Source of the DNA: Eledone cirrhosa
Lineage: Eukaryota
Direction of reading: 5' to 3'
DNA length: 64,000 nucleotides
Assembly (NCBI GenBank): GCA_964016885.1
Contig: OZ024743.1
Span: 1,674,001 to 1,738,000 of the forward strand
Positions 4,841-63,886 of this stretch are shown in pieces. The notes beneath the pieces are model-generated. The model saw only the letters and a list, made by a program, of their open reading frames with translations, did no database searches and was not told the DNA's origin. Made by a program: the position numbers and the translations under genes. Within the stretch, counting starts at the first letter, position 1. Every line of letters begins with the position of its first letter.

Positions 4841-5027
4841 TATATACATACATACAGATATATCTTCAGTGACTGGGGATTCCTTTCTTTGTTTCTGTGC
4901 CTCTCCTTTGTTCTGTCCTACGCCATTTTGTTTCTTATTGGCAACATGACCCTCCCAAAGTATAACAATATCAGTTTCAACACACGATTTCAGATAAAGA
5001 ATCTTGCTAAACAAATTCAGAAACGAA

Positions 5028-5060
<33 letters not shown>

Positions 5061-5458: not shown

Positions 5459-5558
<100 letters not shown>

Positions 5559-6155
5559 AGAAGCAAAAAATTGCTTATTGTGATCCAGTTTTTGGTTAAG
5601 AAAGCCAGTTTCATGGATGGTTTCAACGTACGGTTAGGGGTAACTCCACAAGTGTAAGAATTCCGTTCAATCTTGGAGTATAAAGTATAAAAGAGAAAAC
5701 ACAGGTAAGCATTAAGAGAAGGATTTTATCCAGGTATTTACGACCGTTTCATTGGTAAATGCAACCTTATATTGCTATACTGTAAATAGCAGCCACTCAA
5801 TTATAATTGTTGTTCACAGTCCAAATTTTCAAAATAGTAAGTTACTCTTGAAATAATTCTTAATATATAGAGAAACACATTTATTTGGAATTGTATTTAC
5901 TAGTATAGAGAGAAAGGAATCAGGAGGTGAGGGGACAGACGGCATAGTATAGAGAGAGAGGAAGTGGGAAGAGGTAGGAAGTAGAATGACAAACTGAGAT
6001 GGAGGGAGGGGTAGAGGTGGAAGGATTCTTTGGTCAGTTTTGATAGCAGACATCATGTCGTGGAGTGTAGTGAGTTAAAGAGAATTAAATAGATAATAGT
6101 GGGAGGGATGCATAGAGAGGGAGACAGCGAGAGGGGGGGGGGGAGATATAAAGAG

Positions 6156-6266
<111 letters not shown>

Positions 6267-6473
6267 TGTTAAGTTAAAGTGTACATCTACATATGTATAC
6301 GGAAGTATTAGTATGCATATAAATACATATACATATGTAGATGTACACTTTAACTTAATTGTTTAAGCGTCAGTCATACAAAAGTGAGTTAGAAGCGAAA
6401 CGAAATTTAATTTCGTTTCGTTATTTGTTTTTATCGTTTCCGCTGAACCGGTGCGTACAATGACTCACGTTCT

Positions 6474-6520
6474 ATGCAAATTAGTCTACCCACTACTAAT
6501 TTTCATAGAAAAAGCATATA
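6474..6520 (+). promoter_or_regulatory. Putative snRNA/U6-type promoter module (octamer, PSE-like TAATTTTCATA, TATA-like box) of family A
   Basis: ATGCAAAT at 6474-6481, TAATTTTCATAG, CATATA at 6515-6520; same spacing in families B and C. Confidence 0.55.
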
Positions 6521-6566
6521 ACGATATCTGCTTTTACAATTCTCCAGAGAAGCCGGAAGATGGGTA

Positions 6567-6611
6567 AATATTGCTGATGAGATGTAATAACATCGAAACT
6601 AGTCCAATATT
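6567..6611 (+). ncRNA. Type I hammerhead ribozyme (family A copy 1)
   Basis: AATATTG-CTGATGA-GATG TAATAA CATC-GAAA-CTAG-TC-CAATATT: stems I and II, intact core, palindromic stem III, GUC site. Confidence 0.93.
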
Positions 6612-7035
6612 CCTGTCTGGCCCTCTGGAGAATAGAGGAAATGTGTTTCCTTGAAAACTCGTATGACTCTAAAACCCGGTCCGCCTGTGTGGTTACATAC
6701 AGACTAGCTGACACTCACTGTAAAGTGTCTAGTGAAAAGCTGAGTACATGTACATATGTATACATGTGTGTATTTATATGCATACTAATACTTCCGTATA
6801 CATATGTAGATGTGCACTTTAACTTAATTGTTTAAGCGTCAGTCATACAAAAGTGAGTTAGAAGCGAAACGAAATTTAATTTCGTTTCGTTATTTGTTTT
6901 TATCGTTTCCGCTGAACCGGTGCGTACAATGACTCACGTTCTATGCAAATTAGTCTACCCACTACTAATTTTCATAGAAAAAGCATATAACGATATCTGC
7001 TTTTACAATTCTCCAGAGAAGCCGGAAGATGGGTA

Positions 7036-7080
7036 AATATTGCTGATGAGATGTAATAACATCGAAACTAGTCCAATATT
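7036..7080 (+). ncRNA. Type I hammerhead ribozyme (family A copy 2)
   Basis: Identical to 6567-6611. Confidence 0.93.
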
Positions 7081-7365
7081 CCTGTCTGGCCCTCTGGAGA
7101 ATAGAGGAAATGTGTTTCCTTGAAAACTCGTATGACTCTAAAACCCGGTCCGCCTGTGTGGTTACATACAGACTAGCTGACACTCACTGTAAAGTGTCTA
7201 GTGAAAAGCTGAGTACATGTACATATGTATACATGTGTGTATTTATATGCATACTAATACTTCCGTATACATATGTAGATGTGCACTTTAACTTAATTGT
7301 TTAAGCGTCAGTCATACAAAAGTGAGTTAGAAGCGAAACGAAATTTAATTTCGTTTCGTTATTTG

Positions 7366-7418
<53 letters not shown>

Positions 7419-7495
7419 TACATATACATACATATATATATAAGTATGTCTGTATACGTACATACATATATGTATACAGACGTACAGTAGCATGC

Positions 7496-7526
<31 letters not shown>

Positions 7527-7677
7527 CAGGTACACATACATATATGTACGTATCAGTTTAGCGGACGCTTATTATAACGCCCGCTTTGTTCGTTTGTAAA
7601 CAAACTGAACAGCCTGAATTTATGCCGTACGGTGTTAAGGCAACCACGTGACCTTTTTGTTCAACACTGACACAGGA

Positions 7678-7720
7678 ACGATGTACTAGTTTCAAGCTTG
7701 TTAGCTATCATCAGCACCGT
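7678..7720 (-). ncRNA. Type I hammerhead ribozyme (family B)
   Basis: Reverse complement ACGGTG-CTGATGA-TAGC TAACAA GCTT-GAAA-CTAG-TA-CATCGT; GUA site. Confidence 0.9.
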
Positions 7721-7952
7721 ATACCCTTCTGCCAGATGGTTGAACGTTCGAAAGTATATACTTTCCTTATGAAAATTAACGGCTGAGCAGCCTAATTTGC
7801 ATATCGAGTGAGTTCGGCCAGGCGTACCGAGAACGATAAGTTGTAATAAAATGAAAACGAAATTTCATTTCTCCCTCTTAGTACGGCACTTACTTAAATG
7901 TAAGTATGTATGTATACGTACATACATATATGTATACAGACGTACAGTAGCA

Positions 7953-8012
<60 letters not shown>

Positions 8013-8163
8013 CAGGTACACATACATATATGTACGTATCAGTTTAGCGGACGCTTATTATAACGCCCGCTTTGTTCGTTTGTAAACAAACTGAACAGCC
8101 TGAATTTATGCCGTACGGTGTTAAGGCAACCACGTCACCTTTTTGTTCAACACTGACATAGGA

Positions 8164-8206
8164 ACGATGTACTAGTTTCAAGCTTGTTAGCTATCATCAG
8201 CACCGT
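8164..8206 (-). ncRNA. Type I hammerhead ribozyme (family B)
   Basis: Same motif, intact core. Confidence 0.9.
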
Positions 8207-8252
8207 ATACCCTTCTGCCAGATGGTTGAACGGTAAAACGGCAGAAGGGTAT

Positions 8253-8295
8253 ACGGTGCTGATTATAGCTAACAAGCTTGAAACTAGTACATCGT
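8253..8295 (+). ncRNA. Type I hammerhead (family B), core variant CUGAUUA, probably inactive
   Basis: ACGGTG-CTGATTA-...-GAAA-CTAG-TA-CATCGT; conserved G8 changed to U. Confidence 0.8.
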
Positions 8296-8443
8296 TCCTG
8301 TGTCAGTGTTGAACAAAAAGGTGACGTGGTTGCCTTAACACCGTACGGTATAAATTCAGGCTGTTCAGTTTGTTTACAAACGAACAAAGCGGGAGTTATA
8401 ATAGGCGTCCGCTAAACTGATACGTACATATATGTATGTGTAC

Positions 8444-8526
<83 letters not shown>

Positions 8527-8676
8527 TGCTACTGTACGTCTGTATACATATATGTATGTACGTATACATACATACTTACATTTAAGTAAGTGCCGTACTA
8601 AGAGTGAGAAATGAAATTTCGTTTTCATTTTATTACAACTTATCGTTCTCGGTACGCCTGGCCGAACTCACTCGAT

Positions 8677-8746
8677 ATGCAAATTAGGCTGCTCAGCCGT
8701 TAATTTTCATAAGGAAAGTATATACTTTCGAACGTTGAACCATCTG
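8677..8746 (+). promoter_or_regulatory. Putative snRNA/U6-type promoter module of family B (present in each complete unit)
   Basis: ATGCAAAT at 8677-8684, TAATTTTCATAAG, TATATA at 8719-8724, 21 nt, GGCAG at 8746. Confidence 0.55.
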
Positions 8747-8758
8747 GCAGAAGGGTAT

Positions 8759-8801
8759 ACGGTACTGATGATAGCTAACAAGCTTGAAACTAGTACATCG
8801 T
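8759..8801 (+). ncRNA. Type I hammerhead ribozyme (family B)
   Basis: Intact core; one stem I mismatch next to the core. Confidence 0.85.
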
Positions 8802-8952
8802 TCCTGTGTCAGTGTTGAACAAAAAGGTGACGTGGTTGCCTTAACACCGTACGGCATAAATTCAGGCTGTTCAGTTTGTTTACAAACGAACAAAGCGGGC
8901 GTTATAATAAGCGTCCGCTAAACTGAAATGTACATATATGTATGTGTACCTG

Positions 8953-9046
<94 letters not shown>

Positions 9047-9278
9047 TGCTACTGTACATCTGTATACATATATGTATGTACGTATACATACATACTTACA
9101 TTTAAGTAAGTGCCGTACTAAGAGTGAGAAATGAAATTTCGTTTTCATTTTATTACAACTTATCGTTCTCGGTACGCCTGGCCGAACTCACTCGATATGC
9201 AAATTAGGCTGCTCAGCCGTTAATTTTCATAAGGAAAGTATATACTTTCGAACGTTCAACCATCTGGCAGAAGGGTAT

Positions 9279-9321
9279 ACGGTGCTGATGATAGCTAACA
9301 AGCTTGAAACTAGTACATCAT
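9279..9321 (+). ncRNA. Type I hammerhead ribozyme (family B)
   Basis: Intact core CTGATGA...GAAACTAGTA. Confidence 0.9.
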
Positions 9322-9472
9322 CCCTGTGTCAGTGTTGAACAAAAAGGTGACGTGGTTGCCTTAACACCGTACGGCATAAATTCAGGCTGTTCAGTTTGTT
9401 TACAAACGAACAAAGCGGGCGTTATAATAAGCGTCCGCTAAACTGATACGTACATATATGTATGTGTACCTG

Positions 9473-9550
<78 letters not shown>

Positions 9551-9782
9551 TGCTACTGTACGTCTGTATACATATATGTATGTACGTATACATACATACT
9601 TACATTTAAGTAAGTGCCGTACTAAGAGTGAGAAATGAAATTTCGTTTTCATTTTATTACAACTTATCGTTCTCGGTACGCCTGGCCGAACTCACTCGAT
9701 ATGCAAATTAGGCTGCTCAGCCGTTAATTTTCATAAGGAAAGTATATACTTTCGAACGTTCAACCATCTGGCAGAAGGGTAT

Positions 9783-9825
9783 ACGGTGCTGATTATAGCT
9801 AACAAGCTTGAAACTAGTACATCGT
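9783..9825 (+). ncRNA. Type I hammerhead (family B), core variant CUGAUUA
   Basis: Same G-to-T change as the copy at 8253. Confidence 0.8.
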
Positions 9826-9976
9826 TCCTGTGTCAGTGTTGAACAAAAAGGTGACGTGGTTGCCTTAACACCGTACGGCATAAATTCAGGCTGTTCAGTT
9901 TGTTTACAAACGAACAAAGCGGGCGTTATAATAAGCGTCCGCTAAACTGATATGTACATATATGTATGTGTACCTG

Positions 9977-10051
<75 letters not shown>

Positions 10052-10286
10052 GCATGCTACTGTACGTCTGTATACATATATGTATGTAGGTATACATACA
10101 TACTTACATTTAAGTAAGTGCCCTACTAAGAGTGAGAAATGAAATTTCGTTTTCATTTTATTACAACTTATCGTTCTCGGTACGCCTGGCCGAACTCACT
10201 CGATATGCAAATTAGGCTGCTCAGCCGTTAATTTTCATAAGGAAAGTATATTCTTTCGAACGTTCAACCATCTGGCAGAAGGGTAT

Positions 10287-10329
10287 ACGGTGCTGATGAT
10301 AGCTAACAAGCTTGAAACTAGTACATCGT
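10287..10329 (+). ncRNA. Type I hammerhead ribozyme (family B)
   Basis: Intact core and stems. Confidence 0.9.
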
Positions 10330-10480
10330 TCCTGTGTCAGTGTTGAACAAAAAGGTGACGGGGTTGCCTTAACACCGTACGGCATAAATTCAGGCTGTTC
10401 AGTTTGTTTACAAACGTACAAAACGGGCGTTATAATAAGCGTCCGCTAAACTGATACGTACATATATGTATGTGTACCTG

Positions 10481-10544
<64 letters not shown>

Positions 10545-10546
<2 letters not shown>

Positions 10547-10902
10547 ATGTTAAAACTAACTTAAATTCTTTTAACTATGTTGGTTACACCTCGACAGAAT
10601 TTAAACTTCGCTATAATAATCATAAGAATTCTTTCACAGATCCAAACAAAAAATCTTCAACTTCATTATCAGGCTTACTCTGGCAACTTAAACATGATAA
10701 CGTTGGATATTCGATGTTTTGGAATATAGTCTCAACAGGGATTCCTTTTAATTCCTCATCTGAGACATGTGACCTCTGTGTGGAGGAGATATTCTTTATA
10801 TTAAAATCTAAAAATTCCCTTAATTTAAGGAGCAATTTATTCAGTTGCTGCAGACATAGATTGAACTCAACGTTTAAATATAAATATAAATTTAAAATGT
10901 AG
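10545..10902 (+). pseudogene. Penelope-like element 3' fragment (GIY-YIG endonuclease C-terminal half)
   Basis: Frame reads YVGYTSTEFKLRYNNHKNSF...LWQLK...CDLCVEE...LN.RS.LFSCCRH. Confidence 0.85.
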
Positions 10903-12652
10903 TATAATTAGTTAAGATATTTAATTAATTATGAAACCTGACGATAAATCTTTCGATTCCTTCAACTTTTTCTTTTAAACCTTCTTCATAAATATATACT
11001 AATGATGTAATTTAACTACCCTAAAATGTTAATGCTCCCAATCTATTGAATAAATTTTACGCTAGATGAACTTCTATACTAAATATAAGAGCATCTGTAG
11101 AACAACAGGGTCTCCTAAATCTTTTAAATGATTTCTGCTAAATAAGTTTTGTTGAATAATTTTTGGTTTTTTGTTTGCTTTTTGATTCTGATTGCTTCTA
11201 ATGAACTTGGCAATATATTGTCAGATAAATTGGAAGGGTAGATTTCTGTGGTTGATATGGGGGGCATACTGTGTTTTTTACGGCCTGAGATACTCTAGGG
11301 AGTGATGAAAATATTCTTAACGTTTTGATATCTCTGTGCTGATATATTAATATCTGTTGTCTCTGTGCAAAGGCCATATGTATTAATATGAATATGGAAT
11401 GATTACAGAGTATATTCTATTTTATCTGTTTATTTTATCTGTCCATGTACATATATGTGCGCACGCATATATATATATATGTATGTGTGGCTATAGTTCT
11501 GGATATGTTACAGATATGCATAATATTCTATACATGAACGATAATCATGTATGTGAGGGCAGGAATATTAATATATATTTTTATGTATATATATGTATGT
11601 ATATATATATAGTAAATTCTTTTATAACACAAGGGAACATTTTTTTTTCTGTGAAATAAGAAATTACAGAGTTGATCACGTAAGATCACGAGTATGTCTA
11701 TAGTATCAACTAGAACTTGAGATGACCTTCTATTTTTCTCTTTCTTTCCTTTTCCGGAAAGTACATATATACTTATGTATTTCCGTTTTTTTGAAGTTTA
11801 ATCTCAGTTTTTGGTACATCGACCTAAGAATTTTTAAACTAAACATATGGTCATTATTTTTCACACATTATATATCTATGTTCAAATCCCGCCGAGGTTG
11901 ACTTTGCCTTTCATCCTTACGGGGTCGATAAAATAAAGTACCAGTAATGCACTGGATAATTGCTGGCCTTGTGCCTAACGTAGAAACAATTATATATCTA
12001 TGTCTCATTCATGAATATTGATATTTACATTATAATACCCAATTCATATGAATTGATAATTCAAATTGATAGGACATAACGTAAAGATGTAAATCTATCA
12101 TCCTTCTCTCTAGATATAGCTCTTTCTTCTCCTCCCTCTTTATACATGATGAAATTTAAGTATCGGTTATTTTAACTTTGCCTCTCGAGCTTCTCTCTTG
12201 TTTTCTCTCTTACTTCTCTCATATTTCTCTCACCTCCCCATATATAATTATTATTATTTGGTCTACCTCTTTTTCCCCCACCTCTATCTTTCTCTACCTC
12301 TCTGTTTTCTCTTTATTTTTTATTTCTCTCCGTCTCCTTATCACTATAACTAAATAATTAAAGTACTCCCTCCCTCCTAAATCTCTCAATTTGTATGATG
12401 AATTATTATTATTCATCTGTTGCCTCAGTTGCCTCTCATTTTTCACCTCTTCACTAGTTCTCTCTCCCCTATCTCTCTCTATTTCTCTCTGTTTTTCTTT
12501 ACATACATTTCTTCTTTTTCTCCGTCTTTCTTTTTAACTGTGCTTAACACTAAATATTTATAAACATCTCACTACCAAACCAACTTCTTACATAAAAGTT
12601 GATCAATATTTATGGTACGTCAAATTTATTTATAAAACTGCTTATATATTGT

Positions 12653-12716
12653 ATTTTATCTGAAGAAGGCATGCCATATTTTTAATATGGTATCCCTGAA
12701 ATATGTATAATGAAAT
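12653..12716 (+). ncRNA. Type I hammerhead in a Penelope pseudo-LTR
   Basis: ATTTTAT-CTGAAGA-long stem II-GAAA-TATGTA-TA-ATGAAAT; related copy at 61605-61667. Confidence 0.7.
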
Positions 12717-12757
12717 AAATATGGTTTTATAAATATAGTTTCCATTTGTTTAATATC

Positions 12758-12836
<79 letters not shown>

Positions 12837-13201
12837 TGCTACTGTACGTCTGTATACATATATATATGTACGTATACATACATACTTACATTTAAGTAAG
12901 TGCCGTACTAAGAGTGAGAAATGAAATTTCGTTTTCATTTTATTACAACATATATATATAAATATATATAAAAAATAAAAATAAAGATAATAATGACAAA
13001 AATAAAAGCAAAGAAGGGGGTGAGAAAGAAGAAAAGAAAAGATAGCCAAGAAGGGGGAAGGAAGGAAGAAAACGAAGAAATAGAAGAGGAATGAGGGAGA
13101 AGAGGGGGATATATGTATTGGTTTTGTGGGTAATTAAAGGGTTTAGATATAAGAGGGTATAAAGTCTAAGTATATGCAGTTTGTCAGTTTGTAGTAAGAG
13201 G

Positions 13202-13505
13202 TTAAGGGTTCGATTTGTAGTGCGAAAACTTCTCTTTGAGTCTATGGTTACAATAAATTGATCTCTCAATTTTATTGTTGAGTAACTTATTCTTCGAACT
13301 TAAGATGTGGAACAGCTCAAGGTCGCATAATCGACAGCTTCTCATACCACTCCGATATGGGGGCGCGTTCGATAATTTTTTCCACTTCAGGGTGTATTGA
13401 TGGTTACTTTCCCTCAGTTGCCAGGTCTTGTTTGCAAGGGTAGTTACATAACGGTGCTGGGAATGTTTCATTGCGTAACGGTGTGTATACCAACGAGCTT
13501 TAAAT
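13202..13505 (-). pseudogene. Penelope-like element 3' fragment (GIY-YIG C-terminus)
   Basis: FKARWYTH...TLANKTWQLRE...CRLCDLE...LLN...CNH. Confidence 0.85.
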
Positions 13506-13673
13506 GTAAATACAATTCCAAATAAATGTTTTTCTCTATATATTAAGAATTATTTCAAGAGGAACTTACTATTTTGAAAATCTGGACTGTGAACAACAAT
13601 TACCAATGAAACGGTCGTAAATACCTGGATAAAATCCTTCTCTTAATGCTTACCTGTGTTTTCTCTTTTATAC

Positions 13674-13745
<72 letters not shown>

Positions 13746-13843
13746 TGAAATTAGAATATTATTTCTCGCTCTAGCACAGCTGATACATAAATGTAAGTAT
13801 GCATACGTACACACACACACATATATATATTTATATATACATA

Positions 13844-13904
<61 letters not shown>

Positions 13905-13907
<3 letters not shown>

Positions 13908-14130
13908 AGTATGTTTCTGGGACATTACCCTTCATCAGGACTGTTTACCTCTCTGCCACTCTGTTGAACGGTTGAAAATATATAGTATTTTCTGAAGTAT
14001 ACATCGACTGATTAACCTCATTTGCATACCGAGCCTTGTTATTTGTTCCTCGATGCCAGTGTTTAACAAACTGATGACGACTGGTCATCGGCACAGCACA
14101 GCTTTATCTCGCCGATATAACCCATACGTA
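13905..14130 (-). mobile_element. Solo family C unit: octamer-TATA module plus 3'-truncated hammerhead
   Basis: Reverse complement: ATGCAAAT (14027-14020), 35 nt, TATATA, 21 nt, GGCAG, then CTGATGA-AGGG TAATGT CCCA-GAAAC, ending in (TA)n. Confidence 0.65.
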
Positions 14131-14152
14131 CATATGTATATATGTGTGTCTG

Positions 14153-14206
<54 letters not shown>

Positions 14207-16805: not shown

Positions 16806-17186
16806 AGTAAGTATGTTTTGAAACAGTGAGCAGGTTTGAAATTAGAAAATAGAATAGCTTTCACCGTATTTTTGACTAAAGGAATTTTAGCCTGATAATG
16901 GGGTTTAGAACCCTCAGATAAATGGAAAAAGATGAGTATTGACGTACATGTACTCCCATGTACGTCAATACTCATCTTTGTTTTTATGGTAAGGGTAATA
17001 TAGGCCAGTGTCAAGATTAAGAGATACATCCAAGAAATTAGCTAGTTTGATACTATTATCAAATTCAATTTTTAGGTTATGTTGGTTAAAGAGATTACGT
17101 ATATTGTTCTTAATAATATTAAGGTTAACTATATTGCAATTTAGGATAGTAAAGAGTCCATCGTCACGATAAATTCCACCGCGAAG

Positions 17187-18395
17187 TTGATGTATTTCTT
17201 GGATGTATCTCTTAATCTTGACACTGGCCTATATTACCCTTACCATAAAAACAATGAGAACCTAAATTATGTTAACTTTAAATCTAACCATCCTACCAAT
17301 ATCAAGAATGCTATAGTTAGTAATATTGGAAAAAGAATATCTAACATATCCTCTAATAAAAACATCTTTGATGCTAACGCCAATTACTATAATAACGCAC
17401 TTTCTAAAGCCGGCTATCCAGATAAAATCAAATATAGTAAAGAAACAAATTCTAGAAAAACTTACAGTAGAATAATTAATCATGATCATTCCAATAATTT
17501 TAATAAAAGACCTAGATACAAAAACATAATCTGGTATAATGCTCCTTTCTCCATCTCTATTAATAACAATATTCCTAAATTATTTTTTAGTGCCTTAAAT
17601 AAATGCTTCCCTCCCTCACATATCTATAGTAAAATATTTAACAAACACACCATCAAATTTTCTTATTCCACATCCTCCAATATTTCCAACATCATCTCTA
17701 AACACAACAATAAAATACTAAATACTAAATCTCTTCCTTCCAACATTGAATTTCATAATAACAGTAATAGTACTCCCGACGTCATTGTAAACCCTAGGCT
17801 AACTTCTGTAAACCCAAATACAACGTCAAACACAACTTCGCTAAATGTTCATAATCCAACTCTAAATCAAGAAACTATTATTCCTATCATTCCTATCGCA
17901 AACAACTTCTCCAATCCAATTCCTTCTATAGATAACACTAGGTCACTCATTAATAATCTCTCTAATTGCAACTGCCGCATTAAAAATAAATGTCCTCTCA
18001 ACAACCATTGTCTCGATAAAAACTTAATTTATGAATGTAAAATTATAACTAGCACCAATTCCTTCACCTATTTTGGCTCCACTTCCACCTCTTTTAAAGC
18101 TCGTCTCTATAATCATCATTCATCTTTCAAATACAAACTTAAAAGAACCAACACTGCTCTCTCAGAACTCATATGGTCCTTAAAAGACAAAAACATTAAA
18201 TATACCATCTTTTGGAAGAAGGTTTCTTCTGCATCCTCATACTCGAACAGCTCTCTATCTAAAATCTGTAATCTCTGCCTAAATGAAAAATTTACCATTA
18301 TCTCTAACCTAGATTCTATAATAAATAGACGTACAAATTTGTTTTCTATCTGCCTGCATAAATTCCATAGAACTTTTCACAAAGTATACAGTTAA
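17187..18395 (+). CDS. 5'-truncated Penelope-like element ORF (RT thumb, linker, GIY-YIG endonuclease)
   Basis: FLDVSLNL, SNHP, IIWYNAPFS, CNCRIKNKCPLNNHC, LIY...YFGSTSTSFKARLYNH, CNLCLNEK. Confidence 0.92.
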   Translation: MMYFLDVSLNLDTGLYYPYHKNNENLNYVNFKSNHPTNIKNAIVSNIGKRISNISSNKNIFDANANYYNNALSKAGYPDKIKYSKETNSRKTYSRIINHDHSNNFNKRPRYKNIIWYNAPFSISINNNIPKLFFSALNKCFPPSHIYSKIFNKHTIKFSYSTSSNISNIISKHNNKILNTKSLPSNIEFHNNSNSTPDVIVNPRLTSVNPNTTSNTTSLNVHNPTLNQETIIPIIPIANNFSNPIPSIDNTRSLINNLSNCNCRIKNKCPLNNHCLDKNLIYECKIITSTNSFTYFGSTSTSFKARLYNHHSSFKYKLKRTNTALSELIWSLKDKNIKYTIFWKKVSSASSYSNSSLSKICNLCLNEKFTIISNLDSIINRRTNLFSICLHKFHRTFHKVYS

Positions 18396-20473: not shown

Positions 20474-20803
<330 letters not shown>

Positions 20804-20869
20804 CAAATAGTATATTTCAGAAAATATCATATATTTTCACTAGCTCTGACAGTTGGCAGGTTAGCAGAA

Positions 20870-20918
20870 AACTGCACTGATGAAGGGTAATTACCCAGAA
20901 ACATTAGTGTCTGCAGTT
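20870..20918 (+). ncRNA. Type I hammerhead ribozyme (family C-related solo unit)
   Basis: AACTGCA-CTGATGA-AGGGT AATT ACCCA-GAAA-CA TTAG TG-TC-TGCAGTT; preceded by CATATA, 21 nt, GGCAG. Confidence 0.88.
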
Positions 20919-21133
20919 CTGTTTACATTCCAACACAAGAGCAAGAATGAGGGGCTCATTGATATGGGACATACTGATATGGGACATACTGATATGGCTT
21001 AAAAGAGGCTGTTTGCAAACGAATCGAATTATTATTAATATTCGAAAAACTCAGATTACATTTATATATTAACCCATGCTAGCGTGGAAGATAGACGTTA
21101 AACGATGATGATGATGATGATAATATATATATA

Positions 21134-37485: not shown

Positions 37486-38379
37486 CTAATGGATAAAATT
37501 TATACTACTAGAACCTTTAGGTTTATAATAAAAGTAAGAATTAGAAATAGCGTGGGGGCAAGAAGAGAATATCTCAGACTTTCTATTAAGTAAGGATTCA
37601 CTAGAGAAAATTATAGAGTGTGTTTCGAGGATACAGAGATTACAAAATTTAGTATGTGTAGAAAGGTTATTAGAGCGTGCTACTAAACGCCAATTAAGGC
37701 TATATGGTATATATAAGACCTTAAGATCCCAGATATAGTGTGCTAAAGAAGTAGAATTCTTAAACTTAACATGTTTGAAATTAGAGATATGAGAATTAAA
37801 CCTAGTCTTAAAAGTGTTAGATGTAGAGCCTATATAAGTTCTATTAGAGGAATTAGTTATAACTACGCAAGCATAGACGATGTTCTTAGAGAGGCAGTTA
37901 CCGTTTAAAGGGCAGTTAGCACTCACTCTACAGTTACACTTCCGGGTGCTATTGGTTGGCTGAAGTAGTGATGCATTACACGTAGGATTACTATTAGATA
38001 AGGTCTGCTCTGGTGGTAAGGCATTTACAGATCTGTTCAGACTAGTAGTATGTATAGAGGAGTATCCATCCCTAATTTTCCTATTGTTAGTGCTAGCTAA
38101 ATGAGAACTAATATTAGGGGTGGTAGAGAATGAAAGTTTAATAACATTTTTATTAAAAATACTATAGTACTTATGAGAAGGGGGGACATTTTTCTCTAAG
38201 ATAGAAAAGAAAGACCTAGGGATATTAGTTAATACTTCCTGATTATATGGCGAGTTAAAATAAGTATTTAGTCTCCTTCTATTTTTATCCTTACCGACTC
38301 TACCATTATCCAATATCCCATTATTAAGACTAGGGTTATTACAAGGATTAGTTAAAACCGCATTATTAGAATCAGCCAA
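37486..38379 (-). CDS. 5'-truncated Penelope-like ORF (linker and GIY-YIG); element extends to ~35545
   Basis: YFNSPYN, CNCRVSANCPLNGNC, IVY...YIGSTSNTFKTRFNSH, CNLCILE, LLNRKSEIFSSCPH. Confidence 0.9.
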   Translation of the reverse strand: MADSNNAVLTNPCNNPSLNNGILDNGRVGKDKNRRRLNTYFNSPYNQEVLTNIPRSFFSILEKNVPPSHKYYSIFNKNVIKLSFSTTPNISSHLASTNNRKIRDGYSSIHTTSLNRSVNALPPEQTLSNSNPTCNASLLQPTNSTRKCNCRVSANCPLNGNCLSKNIVYACVVITNSSNRTYIGSTSNTFKTRFNSHISNFKHVKFKNSTSLAHYIWDLKVLYIPYSLNWRLVARSNNLSTHTKFCNLCILETHSIIFSSESLLNRKSEIFSSCPHAISNSYFYYKPKGSSSINFIH

Positions 38380-38383
38380 AAAC

Positions 38384-44942: not shown

Positions 44943-46326
44943 TTAGACATATAACGTATTGGATTCCCGGACTTCCACACGGGAATATACCTCGACGATG
45001 GCCAGACCTTATCGAGCCATAAAAGTGGTCACAACCTCGACCGGTTTAAAAAAAGACTTAACTTCTACCTTTAATGAGTTAGGACTTAGGATAACAGTAG
45101 GATAACAGTAACTACCAAACTCTATAGCGTAGATTTCTTAGACATAAATTTAGACCTTCGCACACATACCTTCAGACGCTTCCATAAGCTTCCATAAGCT
45201 AAACGAAAAACTTAATTACATACACAAAGGCTCATGCCACCCTCCTACTGTTTTTAGAAACTTCGTAAATAATATCAGTACTAGAATCTCTAGCCTCTCC
45301 TTTAATAAGGCTATCTTTGACAGAGCGGAACCCTACTATGTCACGGCGTTAGCTAACAGCGGCTTCTCGCAACCAATTACTTACTCCCCCACTAACAACA
45401 ACAACAATAAGATAAGAAATCGTAACAATAGACAAACTATCTGCTTCTCTGCTCCCTTCTCACTCAACGTTAAAACTAATGTAGGAAAAACATTTTTAGC
45501 CTTCTTAGATAGACACTTTCCCATAGGTCACAAATACCGCTCCATCTTTAACAGACACAGGGTAAAACTAGGGTCCTCCTGCTCTAAGAATATGAAGGCC
45601 CACATCACCAACAGTCCTAAGAGCGGCACCCCACCAGGATGCTCATGCCGAAAGCTTGAATCTTGTCCCCTTCAACAGCAATGCAACACACCCGCTGTAG
45701 TTTATGAAGCTGTGGTTAATTTCAACCGACCAAATCAACCACAGGAGGTCAAATCCTATGTGAGTATGGCGGAGGGCCGATTTAAGGAACCTTTCCTGAA
45801 CCACCAGTCGAATTTTAGGTACCCGGACAAACTATCATCCACGAAACTCGCGAGTCACGTATGGTCCCTCAAGGACTCAGGTATAGACTACTCCATTCAA
45901 TGGAAAGCCATCACTAAGACCAAGCCATATGCAAGGGGCAATCGGTCTTGTGGACTGTGTATTGAAGAAAGGATAAATATTCTAAGGAGATTACGCAATA
46001 GCGATTGTCTAAATTCAAGAAAGGAAATTTTCTCACATTGTCCACATGTCTGGAAACACCTCTTACATAACTACAAAGCTCCGGATTGAATAACAACAGC
46101 ATTCTAATTTTTTACTCAACTCGAACATATTTTCCGGACTTTCACAGTTATCTCCCTTACACCTTTCGCCCGTGGCTTTGTATCGCTTGGGTGAAGTGAC
46201 CGTTTCTGCGCATGTACGTTCATACGGTCGTTCTTCCTGTTCCGTATAACCATGACCAGTGCGAGCTGAAGATCCGCTAAGATGAAACAATTGTTCTCGG
46301 TATGGTGAACTAACTGTTGTGTTACC

Positions 46327-46421: not shown

Positions 46422-46508
46422 AGAAATAGGATTTCGCTTCAGGCATAGCTTTATACAAACACCGGGGCTAACGCCCTCTGGTGGTGTCCAGCAGAAGCAA
46501 GGGGGGAA

Positions 46509-46552
46509 ACCGTCTATGCATTTCAGGCTTGACCGGCCTTCATCAGGACGGT
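46509..46552 (-). ncRNA. Type I hammerhead in a ~165-bp solo element between (TA)n tracts
   Basis: Reverse complement ACCGTC-CTGATGA-AGGC CGGTCAA GCCT-GAAA-TGCA-TA-GACGGT; all stems perfect. Confidence 0.92.
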
Positions 46553-46709
46553 CCCTCGCACCGCTTGCAACTGCTGGACATACATATATATATATATGAA
46601 AAGAGCCAGGACCCCGACGGCTGAGCTCCGGCCGTTTCTACAGCTCGATCCGAGCATTGAGTATTCTGGTGCGTTATGGTCCACCTGGTATCTTACCACA
46701 CCCTCTTTG

Positions 46710-54339: not shown

Positions 54340-54424
<85 letters not shown>

Positions 54425-55990
54425 CTGGTGATGTTGCCAATCTTTTTATGGTATGGTGGGAAAGGAGACTCAAAGATCTCCTTGAAGAGAGCTCCATAGA
54501 CTTCTTCATGTACTCTCGTTACGTAGACGATATTAATATAGTAATAAGAACACCCCAACAAGAGAGTACTAACGAACATGATATAGAATATAGCATAATG
54601 GAAAGCATCCAGCAGATAGCTAACTCCATACACCAGAGTATAACTGAAACTGTTGACTACCCTTCCAAACACCCTAACAATAGACTACCAGTATATGACA
54701 CGGAACTTTGGATTAACTCTGTAGACGAGAGGGCCCAAATTCTCCACCCACACTATGCTAAACCCATGGCCTCCAAATACCTGATACTCAAAAACTCAGC
54801 AATGTCCAATAGTGCTAAGTTTAATATTCTGATCGCAGACTTGGTATGAGTGATGAAGAACGTGTCCCGCATGTGCGACCCAACAGAAATGGAAAGACAT
54901 ATCCAACACTTCATCAACCGCATGCAGTTCTCTGGCTACAACCAAAGAGACAGAATCAGAGTATACAAAGGAGCCACGGGGAAGTATAAAACCCTCATAG
55001 AACTAGACATGAAAGGAATTTGCCCATTATACAGGAGAAAATCATGGAATAGCTTAGATAGGACTAAACATAAGATAGGGAAAACCACCTCATGGTACGA
55101 CAACCAGAGATACCAGAGTGTCATGTTCGTGGATGCTACCCCTGGAGGAAAATTAGCTAACCAATGTAGAAAGGCCCTAAGAAAGACTCACTTAAAGATT
55201 AAAGTGGTAGAAAAGCCAGGAACTAGCATAAAATCCCCGATCAGCAAAACATACCCCTTTAAGAAAACCCACTGTACTAATAAGAAATGTGTTATATGTA
55301 AAGTAAACCTCCAGATAAACTGTAAAACTAGAAATGTAGTTTACAGCATAAGATGTACAGAGAGTACGTGCAGAAACATGACAACGATATACATAGCTGA
55401 GACAGCTCGTAGCATAGGTGAAAGGATAGACCAACACTGGGGGGAATTAAAAGGACAAAAAACGGTTCAGTACTATAGAAACACGCCAGACAACAACATG
55501 ACAGTAACATAGACAACATAGAAATTAAAATAATATCTAAACATAGAAATGACCCAACAGGTAGGCAAATCAGAGAAGCGAGCGAAATAGAGCTTAGAAA
55601 GCCAAAGGTAAACAGAAAAAATGAATGGAATAACAACAACCATACCCAAACAAACATTACTGACTTAAGAGAAATATAAATAAATAAATAAATAAATATA
55701 TACACAAGTACAATAACAACAAACATATAAACACACATTAATAAGATCGAAAACAAAAACCAAAACCAAAAACCAAAAACACATACACCCAAACGCTCCA
55801 AACGCTAACACACACCAAACACTATACACACACGCAAACGCATGCGCAGAGACGGAGACAAAAATAAATAAATAAAATAAATAGATAAAATAAAAATGGC
55901 GTAGACATTACAATACAAAACAATACAGTAGGAGGAAACATGATAATAGTACCACTGATGATGTTGCAGATGTGCAACGAAGAACTTTGT
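54425..55990 (+). mobile_element. 5'-truncated Penelope-like element of a different subgroup (RT RYVDD, GIY-YIG), disrupted; degenerate hammerhead at ~55952-55985
   Basis: YSRYVDD, MQFSGY, CKTRNVVYSIRC, IYIAETARSIGERIDQH; CTGATGA-TGTTGCA GATG TGCAAC-GAA. Confidence 0.85.
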
Positions 55991-56001
55991 TAGCCTATAT
56001 A

Positions 56002-57870
56002 TCTATTTATTAATTTCAAGAACGTCAGTATTCCGTGTGTCATAATTCTCGATTATTATTGGTTCATAGGTTTCAAACGACTCCGCCCACATCAACGACG
56101 CCAAACTGAAATTAATATGCATAATGCCAATGAGGGGGTGAGAGGGGAGAGTGTGAACGCTGTGTTCAATAACTATTAACATGTGTGCGTGTGTATATAC
56201 GTGCACGTATGTTTATGTGTGTGCGTGCGTGCACACACACACAGAAAGTAAAAACTACAACATGTGTGAGTGTGTGCATGTGTAAGTTTGCGTGCGTGTG
56301 CGCGTTTCCATGCGTGTTTGTGTGTGGCGTTCCACAATCGCCACGCAGTTTATCTGTCTGTGTGCCTGTCTGTCAGTCTAACATACACAGAGTTGTGAAG
56401 GGAGTAAATAGGGACCTTTCTTTAAATTGACGGACATCTTTTATATTTATTATTGCGTCATTTTTAATACACTATGTATATGTGTCAGTGTAGAGACGTG
56501 TGTGTGTGATGTGTGTGGAAATAAGAGGGGAAGGAAAGCAATAACTATTAACATGTATGCGTGTGTATGTACGTGCGCGTATGTTTATGTGTGTGTGCGT
56601 GCGTGCAGCGTTCCACAGAAAGTAAAAACTATCAACATGTGTGAGTGTATGCGTGTGCAAGTTTGCGTGCGTGTGCGCGTTTCCATGCGTGTATGTGTGT
56701 GGCGTTCCACAATCGTCATGCAGTTTATCTGTCTGTGTGCTTGTCTGTCAGTCTAACATACACAGAGTTGTGAAGGGAGTAAATAGGGACCTTTTTTTAC
56801 ATTGACAGACATCTTTTATATTTATTATTGTGTCATTTTTTGACAATTGCTCGAAATGAATACTGATAATAAAAACAATTCGACTTTATCAAACAGTGAA
56901 CTACAGCGGCGACGGCGTGCAGCCAGCAATGAAGAAAAACGGGCCGAACAGCGCCATTAGAACGCCGAACTTCAGAGGCGAAGACGTGCCGCCATGAATG
57001 ACGAGAAGCTGGCTGAACAACGCCAACGAAACACTGGAGCCAAGCATCGACGGCGTGCTGCGATGGTTGAAGACGAACTGGCTGAGCATCATCAGCAGAT
57101 GGCCAGAATTTAGCAGCAACGGCGTGCTGCGATGGCTGAAGAGGAGCTGGCTGAACAGCGCCAGCACAATACAGAAGTCCAGAGAATGTGTCGCCAAAGT
57201 GCTCCTCATTCCAGTAAAGAGGCCAGAAGGCGAACGAATGATATTAAAAATGAATCATGGCAACCGTGTCATTTTCAGATTGGTGGACAAGCAGAGTGTC
57301 CACATTGTGGAGCATTGCTTTGGAGGCACGAAAAGACGTGGACCACAATGTGCTGTCATAAAGGAGCAGTTCAACTAGAACCCTTACGAATGCCGGATGA
57401 TGAGGAGTCACCAGAGTTTAAAATACTAAGTATGTGGGGTGATCAAGGAGACCGAGGTAGATTACTGCGCAAATATTCGCGGCAAATTAACAATTCATTA
57501 GCTTTAGCATCGCAGAGAGTTAGTGAGATGTTTGAGAGTGGAGCATGACAACCGAATGTAGTCATTCAAGGCCGTTTGTATCATTGTATCGGTAATTTAG
57601 AAGTTACCCCAGGAGAGAGGCCTCGATTCGCTCAAATTTACGTTAACGATCCAGATTATAGTGAATCGGAGGAGGACATCAGGATCGGTTGGATGAAGTT
57701 GCCGGGAAATATAACTGAACTTGAACGGCAAAGGTTAAGTGATTTGATCCGTGATTTGCAATCATGGCTTAGGCAGTGTAATCCTTATGTTATGGATTTT
57801 ATGTTGGTGGCTGAACTGCAAAATGTTCAGCAGCAAACATTGGTGATTAAGGCTGACGCAGTGCCAAGGA
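56002..57870 (+). mobile_element. Helitron 5' part: ~370-bp tandem duplication, then RepHel N-terminus pseudogene (56857-57870) with 23-aa repeats and zinc-binding region
   Basis: ECPHCGALLWRHE...CCHKGAV, RQINNSLALAS, IQGRLYHCIGNL...PRFAQIYVNDP, NPYV; in-frame stops; candidate 5' TC at 56002. Confidence 0.85.
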
Positions 57871-62846: not shown

Positions 62847-63103
62847 TACACATACACACACACACATACACATATATATATATATACACATACATATATA
62901 TATATACATATACCTGCAAATATACATACATACATACATATATACACACACATACACATTTACATATACATATAATTATTGGGGGGGGGGGGGAATTAAA
63001 TTTATTAGTGAGAAATAATAAATATATTATTATCGTAAAATGATGAATTTTTTAATATAAGGAACTGTTTCTTTGTTTATTCATTATTTTATTAATTTAT
63101 CTT

Positions 63104-63751
63104 TCCTCAAAAACCAGTATGACTCTAAAAACCGGTTTGTCTGTGTGTTTACATACAGAATAGCTGGATACTCACAGTAAAGTAACCAGTGAAAGACTTG
63201 GTACATCTACATATGTATACGTGTGTGTATTCATATGCATACTAGTATTTCAGTATGCATATGTAGATGTACATTTTTAACTTAATTGTTTAAGCGTCAG
63301 TCATACAAAAGTGAGTTACAAACGAAACGAAATTTAATTTCGTTTCGTTATTTGTTTTTATCGTCTCCGTTGAACCGGTACGTACTCACACTCTATGCAA
63401 ATTAGTCTGCCCACTACTAATTTTCATAGAAAAAGCATATAACGATATGTGATTTTACGATTCTCCAGAAAGGCCGGTAGATAGGTAAATATTGCTGATG
63501 AGTTGTAACAACAACGAAACTAGTTCAATATTCCTTGTCTGGCTTTCTGGAGAATAGAGGAAAGGTGTTTCCTCAAAAACCAGTATGACTCTAAAAACCG
63601 GTTTGTCTGTGTGTTTACATACAGAATAGCTGGATACTCACAGTAAAGTAACCAGTGAAAGACTTGGTACATCTACATATGTATACGTGTGTGTATTCAT
63701 ATGCATACTAGTATTTCAGTATGCATATGTAGATGTACATTTTTAACTTAA
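63104..63751 (+). mobile_element. Diverged family A retrozyme-like array (466-bp unit, 1.4 copies) inserted into a Penelope terminal repeat
   Basis: Homologous to 6269-7367; TTATCTT at 63097-63103 and 63752-63758; uninterrupted homologous target at ~40855-41030. Confidence 0.85.
63488..63532 (+). ncRNA. Type I hammerhead (diverged family A)
   Basis: AATATTG-CTGATGA-GTTG TAACAA CAAC-GAAA-CTAG-TT-CAATATT; compensatory stem II change versus 6567. Confidence 0.88.
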
Positions 63752-63886
63752 TTATCTTGACTCTGTTTTCCGTTTATTTTTCACCGAAAATAGTTTTTGA
63801 ATGCATCCTCTCTTTTCATGATATCCGGATTACATTGAGTTCTTCATACGGATTGGACACTACCGTAAACTTTTGGTAGATTTATC

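Follow-up and report, generated by a model that had tools for sequence, protein, structure and literature searches.

Hammerhead tandem repeats of Eledone cirrhosa with a likely snRNA-type promoter and a Penelope-like insertion footprint

The transcription of animal retrozymes and the identity of the retrotransposon that mobilises them are named as open points in the accessible part of PMC7761336. Both questions are raised by two adjacent repeat arrays in the genome of Eledone cirrhosa, which lie in a window of 64,000 nucleotides (the whole stretch analysed, contig OZ024743.1, positions 1,674,001 to 1,738,000; coordinates below are those of the window). The original prediction for this locus was of retrozymes mobilised in trans, and this idea is supported by hammerhead-bearing tandem units of low GC content (37% in family A, 34% in family B), many dispersed copies that are 99% identical, and the lack of an attached ORF. 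What went unrecognised is the insertion footprint of Penelope-like elements (PLEs). On balance, we think it probable that A and B are retrozymes that transcribe themselves from a block resembling snRNA promoters and are copied in trans by a PLE protein.

The prediction of two neighbouring non-coding tandem arrays with one hammerhead per unit agrees with our count of nine motifs in nine units. Family A has the expected 469-bp unit (469-bp period, 2.2 copies, 99% match). For family B, the expected 504–520 bp fits the forward strand, where cut-to-cut spacings are 506, 520, 504 and 504, whereas the single spacing on the reverse strand is shorter, at 486. Outside the microsatellite, B units are 98–99% identical, and their length differences (486–520 bp) arise because the internal (TA)n varies. 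The tandem part of the proposed layout stands, but it had been missed that both arrays are two-armed, head-to-head insertions, and that B, rather than ending at about 10490, reaches 12953, past a nested 2.2-kb PLE (Table 1). As had been seen, A and B are mostly unalike, having in common only an RY-rich stretch, a hairpin, the upstream block and the hammerhead, and they have no coding capacity: the four longest frames outside microsatellites (67–84 aa) are without Pfam match above cut-off. Frameshifting indels within the unit of subfamily A2 are consistent with this.

Table 1. Features of the family A and B insertions and of the nested element
Feature	Position	Strand	Remarks
Family A short inverted arm	6269..6346	-	stops at short 3' end adjoining (TA)n
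Family A direct arm	6281..7367	+	2.3 units of 469 bp; stops at long 3' end adjoining (TA)n
Promoter-like block, A unit 1	6474..6522	+	ATGCAAATTAG at 6474, TATA at 6517; predicted start ~6547
Type I hammerhead A1	6568..6610	+	core 6574; predicted cut after 6604 (GUC)
Promoter-like block, A unit 2	6943..6991	+	
Type I hammerhead A2	7037..7079	+	core 7043; predicted cut after 7073 (GUC)
Family A tail, short-to-long 3' end interval	7298..7367	+	GAAACGAAATTT hairpin at 7335-7357
Family B inverted arm	about 7438..8232	-	1.6 units; hammerhead cores 8200, 7714; promoter-like block 7802; short 3' end
Family B direct arm	8240..10543	+	hammerhead cores 8259, 8765, 9285, 9789, 10293; internal (TA)n in each unit
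Family B direct-arm promoter-like blocks	8677, 9197, 9701, 10205	+	TATA 42 nt further on
Hydra-type PLE, 5'-truncated	10543..12759	+	nested in last internal (TA)n of B
Hydra-type PLE contents		+	GIY-YIG C-terminus 10543-10899; long 3' UTR; own hammerhead core ~12660
True 3' end of B insertion	12759..12953	+	remaining unit and tail; hairpin 12918; long 3' end adjoining (TA)n

All nine hammerhead motifs are of type I and close with GAAA-CTAG-T(C/A), as predicted. Seven cores are intact, while those at 8259 and 9789 read CUGAUUA, with G8 lost. The B hammerhead at 8765 has a mismatched first helix I pair, and U.U stands at 10.1-11.1 in all B hammerheads, that is, in seven of the nine motifs of the window. 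Although their sequences differ, families A, A2, B, B2, D and E all fold into the same extended helix I (z -2.1 to -5.4). The Rfam search suggested with the prediction gave no match at gathering score in the window; two A motifs matched Hammerhead_HH9 below the gathering cut-off of 52 (31.8 bits, E 5e-5), and no B motif was among the matches below gathering score. At gathering score, Rfam likewise gave nothing for eight loci drawn from families F and G and from the L254 type. Sub-threshold Rfam miRNA matches in the window were rejected as artefacts of the hairpin and the RY-repeat. According to the accessible text of bioRxiv 10.64898/2026.07.22.740005, one of nine predicted Xenopus retrozymes cut in vitro; this poor record, together with the U.U of the B type and the lost G8, counts against the explanation that we prefer.

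The repeats are spread over the genome. One genome search gave at least 188 matches to dispersed copies in 39 scored of 528 candidates and a second at least 44 in 40 scored of 1959, and the pattern of promoter-like block plus hammerhead occurs 19,072 times, as against 0 for the reversed control. The block recurs in seven or more families that otherwise cannot be aligned with one another (A, B, C, E, F, G and the L254 type); the loci analysed were the best-scoring or first-listed places rather than a random sample. To judge by their sequences, A and B are young, genome-wide retrozyme families, an already known kind of element.

The shared upstream block had been noticed in the original prediction, though not its likeness to promoters. 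It consists of ATGCAAAT(T/G)AG and TATA, matching the upstream regions of the U6, U6atac and MRP genes of this genome, and is likely to be an snRNA-type promoter. TATG(C/G)(A/T)AAT(T/G)AG at -76 to -78 with TATA at -30 was found at five of nine U6 loci, one of six U6atac loci and the one MRP locus, and the best-scoring locus of each gene has both words. Two observations count against the match: four U6 and five U6atac loci are without the octamer word, these being loci that look like retrocopies or have what looks like a repeat upstream, and a distal TTACCTCCC-like word, present about 260 nt upstream at 8 of 21 snRNA/MRP loci, is absent from A and B units.

As to the polymerase, all 16 U1/U2/U5/U12 loci have YCAG at -55 to -58 and a TATA-like word, and none of them has the octamer word, which among the snRNA-type genes examined here is confined to Pol III genes. 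At -56/-57, counting from TATA+30, where U1/U2/U5/U12 have YCAG, the units have a YCAS word; at this PSE position stands TCAG in B and C, TCAC in E and CCAC in A. Against the Pol II matrix, family C scored 17.5 bits, with 0 of 500 shuffles as good, and the scores of A, B, E and F were non-significant (p 0.20–0.91). The predicted start falls between YC and AG in B, C and E, compared with GC and A in U1. The octamer-to-TATA spacing is 42–43 in A, B, C and E, 4–5 nt shorter than in the Pol III genes (46–48), and 47 in F. We lean towards Pol II as the polymerase of the units; Pol III, alone or alongside Pol II, is a possible but doubtful choice, and it seems improbable that the block is not a promoter at all.

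The question of mobilisation is addressed by the ends of the insertions. In family A, 79 of 93 3' ends fall into two intervals, 224–233 and 294–302, adjoining (TA)n. One short and one long end are combined in 29 of 37 two-armed insertions of A, tallied by hand from the arm maps, and in 17 of 27 of B; the remainder are ambiguous, and no pair of long or of short ends was seen among the 37 and 27. Between the two fixed 3' ends lies a one-sided tail of 62–72 nt, which contains the hairpin common to A and B. The 5' ends of arms are uniformly spread (KS p 0.21; 87 of 94 ends kept, seven filler or duplicate pieces dropped and four values set by hand), and pile up neither at the predicted transcription start, where 5 were seen and 3.2 expected, nor at the cut site, with 2 seen and 3.0 expected; the former result counts against our explanation. 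The flanks of A/B insertions, inspected for target-site duplications of more than 4 bp, consist of (TA)n.

PLEs are described in the accessible part of PMC8557442 as truncated at the 5' end, with inverted 5' copies, a tail on one side and (TA)n as target; that of PMC11167929 describes a PLE protein that cuts and extends both strands, and a tail that is the interval separating two internal RT starts. Our insertions have fixed 3' ends, random 5' truncation, an inverted 5' copy, a one-sided tail and a microsatellite target, all of them traits of PLE mobilisation; their tails exceed the published 30–40 bp, which counts against our explanation. Arms cross the cut site over up to 16 units, and thus the template would be either circular or a multimer left uncut. 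Six variants are present in every unit of one insertion, five of the six on both arms. Three times as many, 19, are shared by just part of the units of an insertion and count against our explanation: templates that are mixed or linear would account for them, as would later exchange.

The best candidate for the helper is a Neptune-like PLE family. Two insertions of B have a Neptune-like arm attached: in one (L210), this arm, with a long end, meets a B arm with a short end 5'-to-5', while in the other chimera (L211) both ends are long, which counts against our explanation. With (TA)n as the common target of all these elements, the partners in both chimeras may be neighbours by chance. In the Atlas, the Neptune-like protein is grouped with HTH_animal/GIY-YIG clusters (0.96–0.97), and Pfam recognised none of these PLE proteins above cut-off; the labels Hydra and Neptune-like come from motifs that the accessible part of PMC8557442 describes, not from a tree. 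Homologue searches bearing on the host taxon gave remote matches only, most of them unnamed; two Argonauta proteins and one Octopus protein among them, at 34–42%, are not diagnostic. The neighbouring Hydra-type PLE was rejected as helper or source, as it has a different hammerhead and a different tail (about 88 nt), is without the octamer word, and is simply nested in B.

In the cycle that we propose, transcription would start about 30 nt past TATA and 45–57 nt ahead of the cut site, most likely by Pol II, and would run through the promoter of the next unit. Adjacent hammerheads would cut, probably as dimers via the palindromic CUAG. Unlike an ordinary snRNA transcript, from which the promoter sequence would be lost, the cut-to-cut monomer would therefore retain it and would probably be circularised. 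The PLE protein would nick both strands of a (TA)n tract, and reverse transcription would begin within the RNA at two fixed sites 62–72 nt apart, one per strand. The two cDNAs would extend over several units and be joined at random 5' ends, producing head-to-head arrays with a short and a long end, some of which would later grow by unequal exchange. A fuller version can be offered only tentatively: a superfamily of hammerhead retrozymes, with seven or more families and about 19,000 units, may have captured a host snRNA promoter and may keep it, though it is normally external, during retrotransposition by cutting it into its own circular RNA, with a PLE dimer priming the two cDNAs on such circles, one for each target strand, and a Neptune-like helper.

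A competing account retains the PLE-mobilised, promoter-bearing element but takes an uncut linear read-through multimer as the template, possibly made by Pol III with leaky termination at T-runs, and places cleavage and circles outside the copying step. It draws on an Anolis PLE whose hammerhead mutants insert normally and whose main substrate in vitro is unprocessed RNA (both in the accessible part of PMC11167929), and it agrees with the octamer word at Pol III genes only, with the T5 run at the long end of A, and with variants in only some units, at times on both arms (L151), as a heterogeneous multimer would give. Against this, 5' ends are not in excess at the predicted start, the long end of B lies 8–12 nt past its T4 runs, and T4–T5 runs stand between every hammerhead and the following promoter; moreover, a bottleneck of one unit is suggested by private variants that are fixed in every unit of the two arms, and the hammerhead fold is kept in unrelated families. 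We consider a linear template unlikely, if a serious contender.

If A and B were instead solo or tandem pseudo-LTRs of coding PLEs outside the six ends sampled, their footprint would be the same as that of PLEs, and 24 of 57 Xenopus retrozyme families do match known elements, nearly all PLE termini (bioRxiv 10.64898/2026.07.22.740005, accessible text). The original prediction had itself named ordinary pseudo-LTRs always attached to a coding Penelope as a ground for rejecting it. In the arm maps, however, further units, flank or the inverted arm lie upstream of the arms, with no RT/GIY-YIG ORF. Neither A nor B has significant similarity to the six PLE ends sampled from this genome (best E 0.19, from a Neptune-like end that resembles the A hairpin at 18 of 21 positions and has other upstream motifs), and none of the six has the octamer word, so that we regard this origin as quite improbable. 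Ordinary satellite DNA, amplified at the DNA level only and with incidental ribozyme and promoter words, would suit the long arrays, whose higher-order patterns of units (L152, L165/166) are those expected of unequal exchange. Satellite turnover cannot give fixed 3' ends in (TA)n, short/long asymmetry and random 5' ends, nor multi-contig dispersion or a motif order kept across unalignable families, and this last explanation is scarcely credible.

The promoter of newt satellite 2 reportedly has an octamer/PSE make-up. This hammerhead tandem repeat, from a vertebrate unlike A and B, resembles them in having an snRNA-type promoter inside the unit, Pol II-driven and tested in the newt (Coats, Zhang and Epstein 1994, as reported in the accessible part of PMC2220036) and inferred in A and B, where an octamer-like word adjoins the PSE position and TATA in at least seven families. 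We found no PLE tail analysis of satellite 2 in the literature. With metazoan non-LTR retrozymes, as portrayed in the accessible parts of PMC7229834 and PMC7761336, A and B share tandem units that are short, non-coding and equipped with one type I hammerhead, a weak palindromic helix III, GC below 45%, thousands of copies and PLEs in the same genome. Their units are 469–520 bp as against about 170–400 nt there, within the 51–972 bp range given in the accessible text of bioRxiv 10.64898/2026.07.22.740005. Those retrozymes seemingly have no promoters and no conserved motif hinting at a helper (PMC7761336, same part), whereas A and B have both a block resembling a promoter and the tail signature of PLEs; circular RNA has been shown for the former (PMC7229834, PMC7761336) and is predicted for A and B.

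Hydra and Neptune/Nematis PLEs are similar to A and B in their (TA)n targets, 5' truncation, tandem or inverted copies, one-sided tail and hammerhead in the repeat (accessible parts of PMC8557442, PMC11167929 and PMC4209133). A and B differ from them in having no RT-EN ORF, a tail of 62–72 nt and other promoter motifs, and in sequence they are not homologous to any of the six PLE ends that were examined. Li, Clavereau and Pollet 2026 (bioRxiv 10.64898/2026.07.22.740005) also have PLEs mobilising retrozymes, their evidence, from 31 vertebrates, three insects and a coral, being co-occurrence together with pLTR homology; our evidence is an insertion footprint without pLTR homology, and the accessible text of that preprint mentions no mollusc, footprint or promoter.

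No description of such repeats in cephalopods was found in the literature, of which subscription journals were thinly covered and repeat databases lay outside the scope; cephalopod families may be listed in supplementary material such as that on Hydra families in PMC8557442 or the tables of species in bioRxiv 10.64898/2026.07.22.740005. What is added to the original prediction is a likely snRNA-type promoter and a PLE footprint on a known kind of retrozyme. Since the system predicts a start site, two promoter words, two RT start sites per family and a candidate helper, both open points become addressable by experiment. The comparison with snRNA genes also gives first-pass promoter motifs of this genome for Pol II and for Pol III snRNAs, of use when small RNAs are to be expressed. 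More broadly, it suggests that the design of newt satellite 2, an snRNA promoter with a tandem hammerhead, is not a salamander oddity, and the fuller version of the proposed cycle, if true, would be the first complete, testable retrozyme cycle from promoter through integration.

The units of families A and B, adjacent non-coding tandem repeats that lie in a 3.0-Gb assembly, each carry one type I hammerhead. All nine predicted motifs with terminal GAAA-CTAG-T(C/A) were found again: two have a CUGAUUA core, one has a mismatched first helix I pair, and those of B show U.U at 10.1-11.1. The A hammerhead matches Rfam at a sub-cut-off score only, and those of B have no Rfam support even below the cut-off. 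In A, B, their subfamilies A2 and B2, and the further families D and E, helix I is extended by a long bulged stem (z -2.1 to -5.4) of different sequence in each. The original prediction gave the period of A correctly (469 bp), but B units measure 486-520 bp from cut site to cut site rather than 504-520 bp, the main variable part being the internal (TA)n. It also held that the units lack coding capacity, and neither encodes a recognisable protein; autonomous Penelope-like elements (PLEs) were rejected as the identity of A and B.

The two arrays are adjacent as predicted, but their extent differs: each has two head-to-head arms, and B resumes beyond a PLE nested in its last internal (TA)n. Near-full copies of this PLE (ORFs of 659-749 aa at all eight loci retrieved) share its endonuclease end, its hammerhead and its final end, with a UTR of 1.5 kb leading from the endonuclease to the hammerhead; this marks the nested interval as a single element. 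The CxxC and CxH motifs it carries, together with its (TA)n target, agree with the description of the Hydra clade in PMC8557442. PLE fragments are many in the window, several with minimal hammerheads of their own.

Features in the window and at other loci (L-numbers) of the same genome
Feature	Position	Strand	Remark
Family A inverted arm (short)	6269-6346	-	
Family A direct arm	ends 7367	+	
Family B minus arm	about 7438-8232	-	
Family B plus arm	starts 8240	+	
Single 5'-truncated PLE nested in B	10543-12759	+	by comparison with near-full copies
Remainder of last B unit	12759-12953		3' of nested PLE
PLE fragment, Neptune-like or Hydra-type	54424-56050	+	
Same	4860-5030	+	
Same	13205-13680, 5550-6140		
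Same	17145-18392, 37489-38382, 45190-46047		
Family C fragments	13740-14160	-	promoter block at 14027, truncated hammerhead
Further hammerhead elements	20803-20990	+	
Same	46460-46620	-	
Same	63102-63753	+	
Families F, G and a further type (old, diverged)	L243, L244, L249, L250, L253, L248, L251, L254		
Tandem hammerhead family, ~307-bp unit, helix III CGCG	L168:4634-5501, L171:1-330, L194:3000-3400		

Genome searches gave 188 matches for A (39 scored of 528 candidates) and 44 for B (40 scored of 1959); identity was 99-100% in most of them. Their 3' ends are of two kinds, short and long, with the tail as the interval between them: unit positions 224-233 (36/93) and 294-302 (43/93) in A, ~287-293 and ~348-352 in B, directly followed by (TA)n. 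The 5' ends (87 kept) are uniformly distributed. One short and one long end are combined in 29 of 37 two-armed A insertions, by our own tally of arm maps, and in 17 of 27 for B, a set in which L037 and L038 are duplicates. The other eight and ten were not classed, the window's B insertion falling among the ten because of its nested PLE; two like ends were found in none of the 37 or the 27. The hairpin first noticed from the sequence lies inside the tail in both families. Such ends, the 5' truncation pattern and (TA)n targets are among the PLE traits in PMC8557442. PMC11167929 shows a PLE protein that acts on both strands and starts reverse transcription at two internal sites, the tail being the stretch from one to the other. 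A and B are thus very probably retrozymes moved by PLE machinery.

Which PLE supplies this machinery is a more tentative matter. A Neptune-like family with RT and GIY-YIG motifs ends in (TA)n and has a 60-nt tail whose closing sequence, GAAACGAAAT, is that of the 5' arm in the family A hairpin (tail versus A, E 0.19). Two of 45 B clusters are 5'-joined to an inverted, truncated Neptune-like arm, one (L210) with complementary short/long ends and without leftover B sequence on the opposite side, the other (L211) with both ends long; one A insertion (L163) continues into a second Hydra family. Common (TA)n targeting can also yield such junctions through chance neighbourhood, and six PLE ends gave neither a match to A or B nor an octamer word (0/6). 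We treat the three junctions as leads, and the Neptune-like PLE as a possible but rather doubtful helper. The arms, of up to 16 units, run across the cut site, so the template was a circle or an uncut multimer; unit variants (102 single, 19 partial and 6 fixed among 37 insertions and 217 unit pieces) are compatible with both, and we consider a circular RNA intermediate fairly probable. Arrays of 16 and ~31 units with recurring variant patterns, at L165-L166 (C1:5738000-5752800) and L152, point to post-insertion growth or to the copying of multimeric templates. At L026:809 a B unit passes without a gap into an A2 unit close to the hammerhead, a junction that may record a template switch between the two families.

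Both families share the block ATGCAAAT(T/G)AG, with TATA 42-43 nt past its first base. TATG(C/G)(A/T)AAT(T/G)AG at -76 to -78 with TATA at -30 occurs in 5/9 U6 loci, 1/6 U6atac loci and the single MRP locus examined, including each family's best-scoring locus; U6/U6atac loci without the word are preceded by (TA)n or other repeats. In sixteen U1, U2, U5 and U12 loci, picked from 31 fetched for distinct upstream sequence, YCAG is always present at -55 to -58 and the octamer word always absent. Counted from TATA+30, the octamer of the units falls at -72/-73 and their YCAS at -56/-57; the block reads as a hybrid of the Pol II and Pol III snRNA promoter classes with Pol II geometry. The Pol II matrix scores significantly for family C only; family F has U6 geometry. 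The octamer-TATA-CUGAUGA pattern occurs 19,072 times in the genome (control 0) and 278 times with the longer spacing, and the octamer-TATA-hammerhead block recurs in at least seven families of otherwise dissimilar sequence. Judged by its motifs, a functional internal snRNA-type promoter, Pol II or Pol III, is highly likely. Pol II is favoured because T runs separate each hammerhead from the next promoter, and by the newt precedent (PMC2220036); compact promoters of the H1 type can attract Pol II as well as Pol III (PMC11340601).

Across the snRNA loci compared (U1, U2, U5, U12, U6, U6atac and MRP; L061-L090, L143, L149, L230-L242), the Pol II genes combine YCAG at -56 with a TATA-like word at -30; in the Pol III genes TATA goes with an octamer-like word at -77. 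Members of both classes show, around -260, a distal TTACCTCCC-like word. Tandem U6 copies at L075, L078 and L080 keep TATA, with the upstream element swapped for a common repeat. Of the blocks, that of family C at 14027 comes closest to the PSE of Pol II snRNA genes, and the C tail is related to that of B. Further window elements are family D (C-like), family E, whose helix III is TGCA, and an older copy of A2 in which the cut triplet is GUU. Families F and G and the further type have the same octamer/TATA block ahead of hammerhead-like cores; in F the spacing is U6-type (47), and a T run often comes straight after the ribozyme. The ~307-bp family lacks the octamer block and is head-to-head like A and B.

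A proposal from 2020 links PLEs with retrozymes, and the preprint bioRxiv 10.64898/2026.07.22.740005 bases its case for that link on co-occurrence and homology. We found no such repeats described in the literature on cephalopod or octopus hammerheads, ribozymes, retrozymes or Penelope, and no retrozyme paper among the 15 best matches for a retrozyme with an snRNA promoter and octamer. A and B work like the non-LTR retrozymes that PMC7229834 describes, and by the features compared they are members of that group. Retrozymes seem to be without promoters according to the review PMC7761336, whereas A and B carry the promoter-like block; newt satellite 2, for its part, has a promoter in its repeat (PMC2220036). 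The tail footprint is a second difference from described retrozymes. A and B are a real feature, and what is new here is the promoter-like block and the tail footprint.
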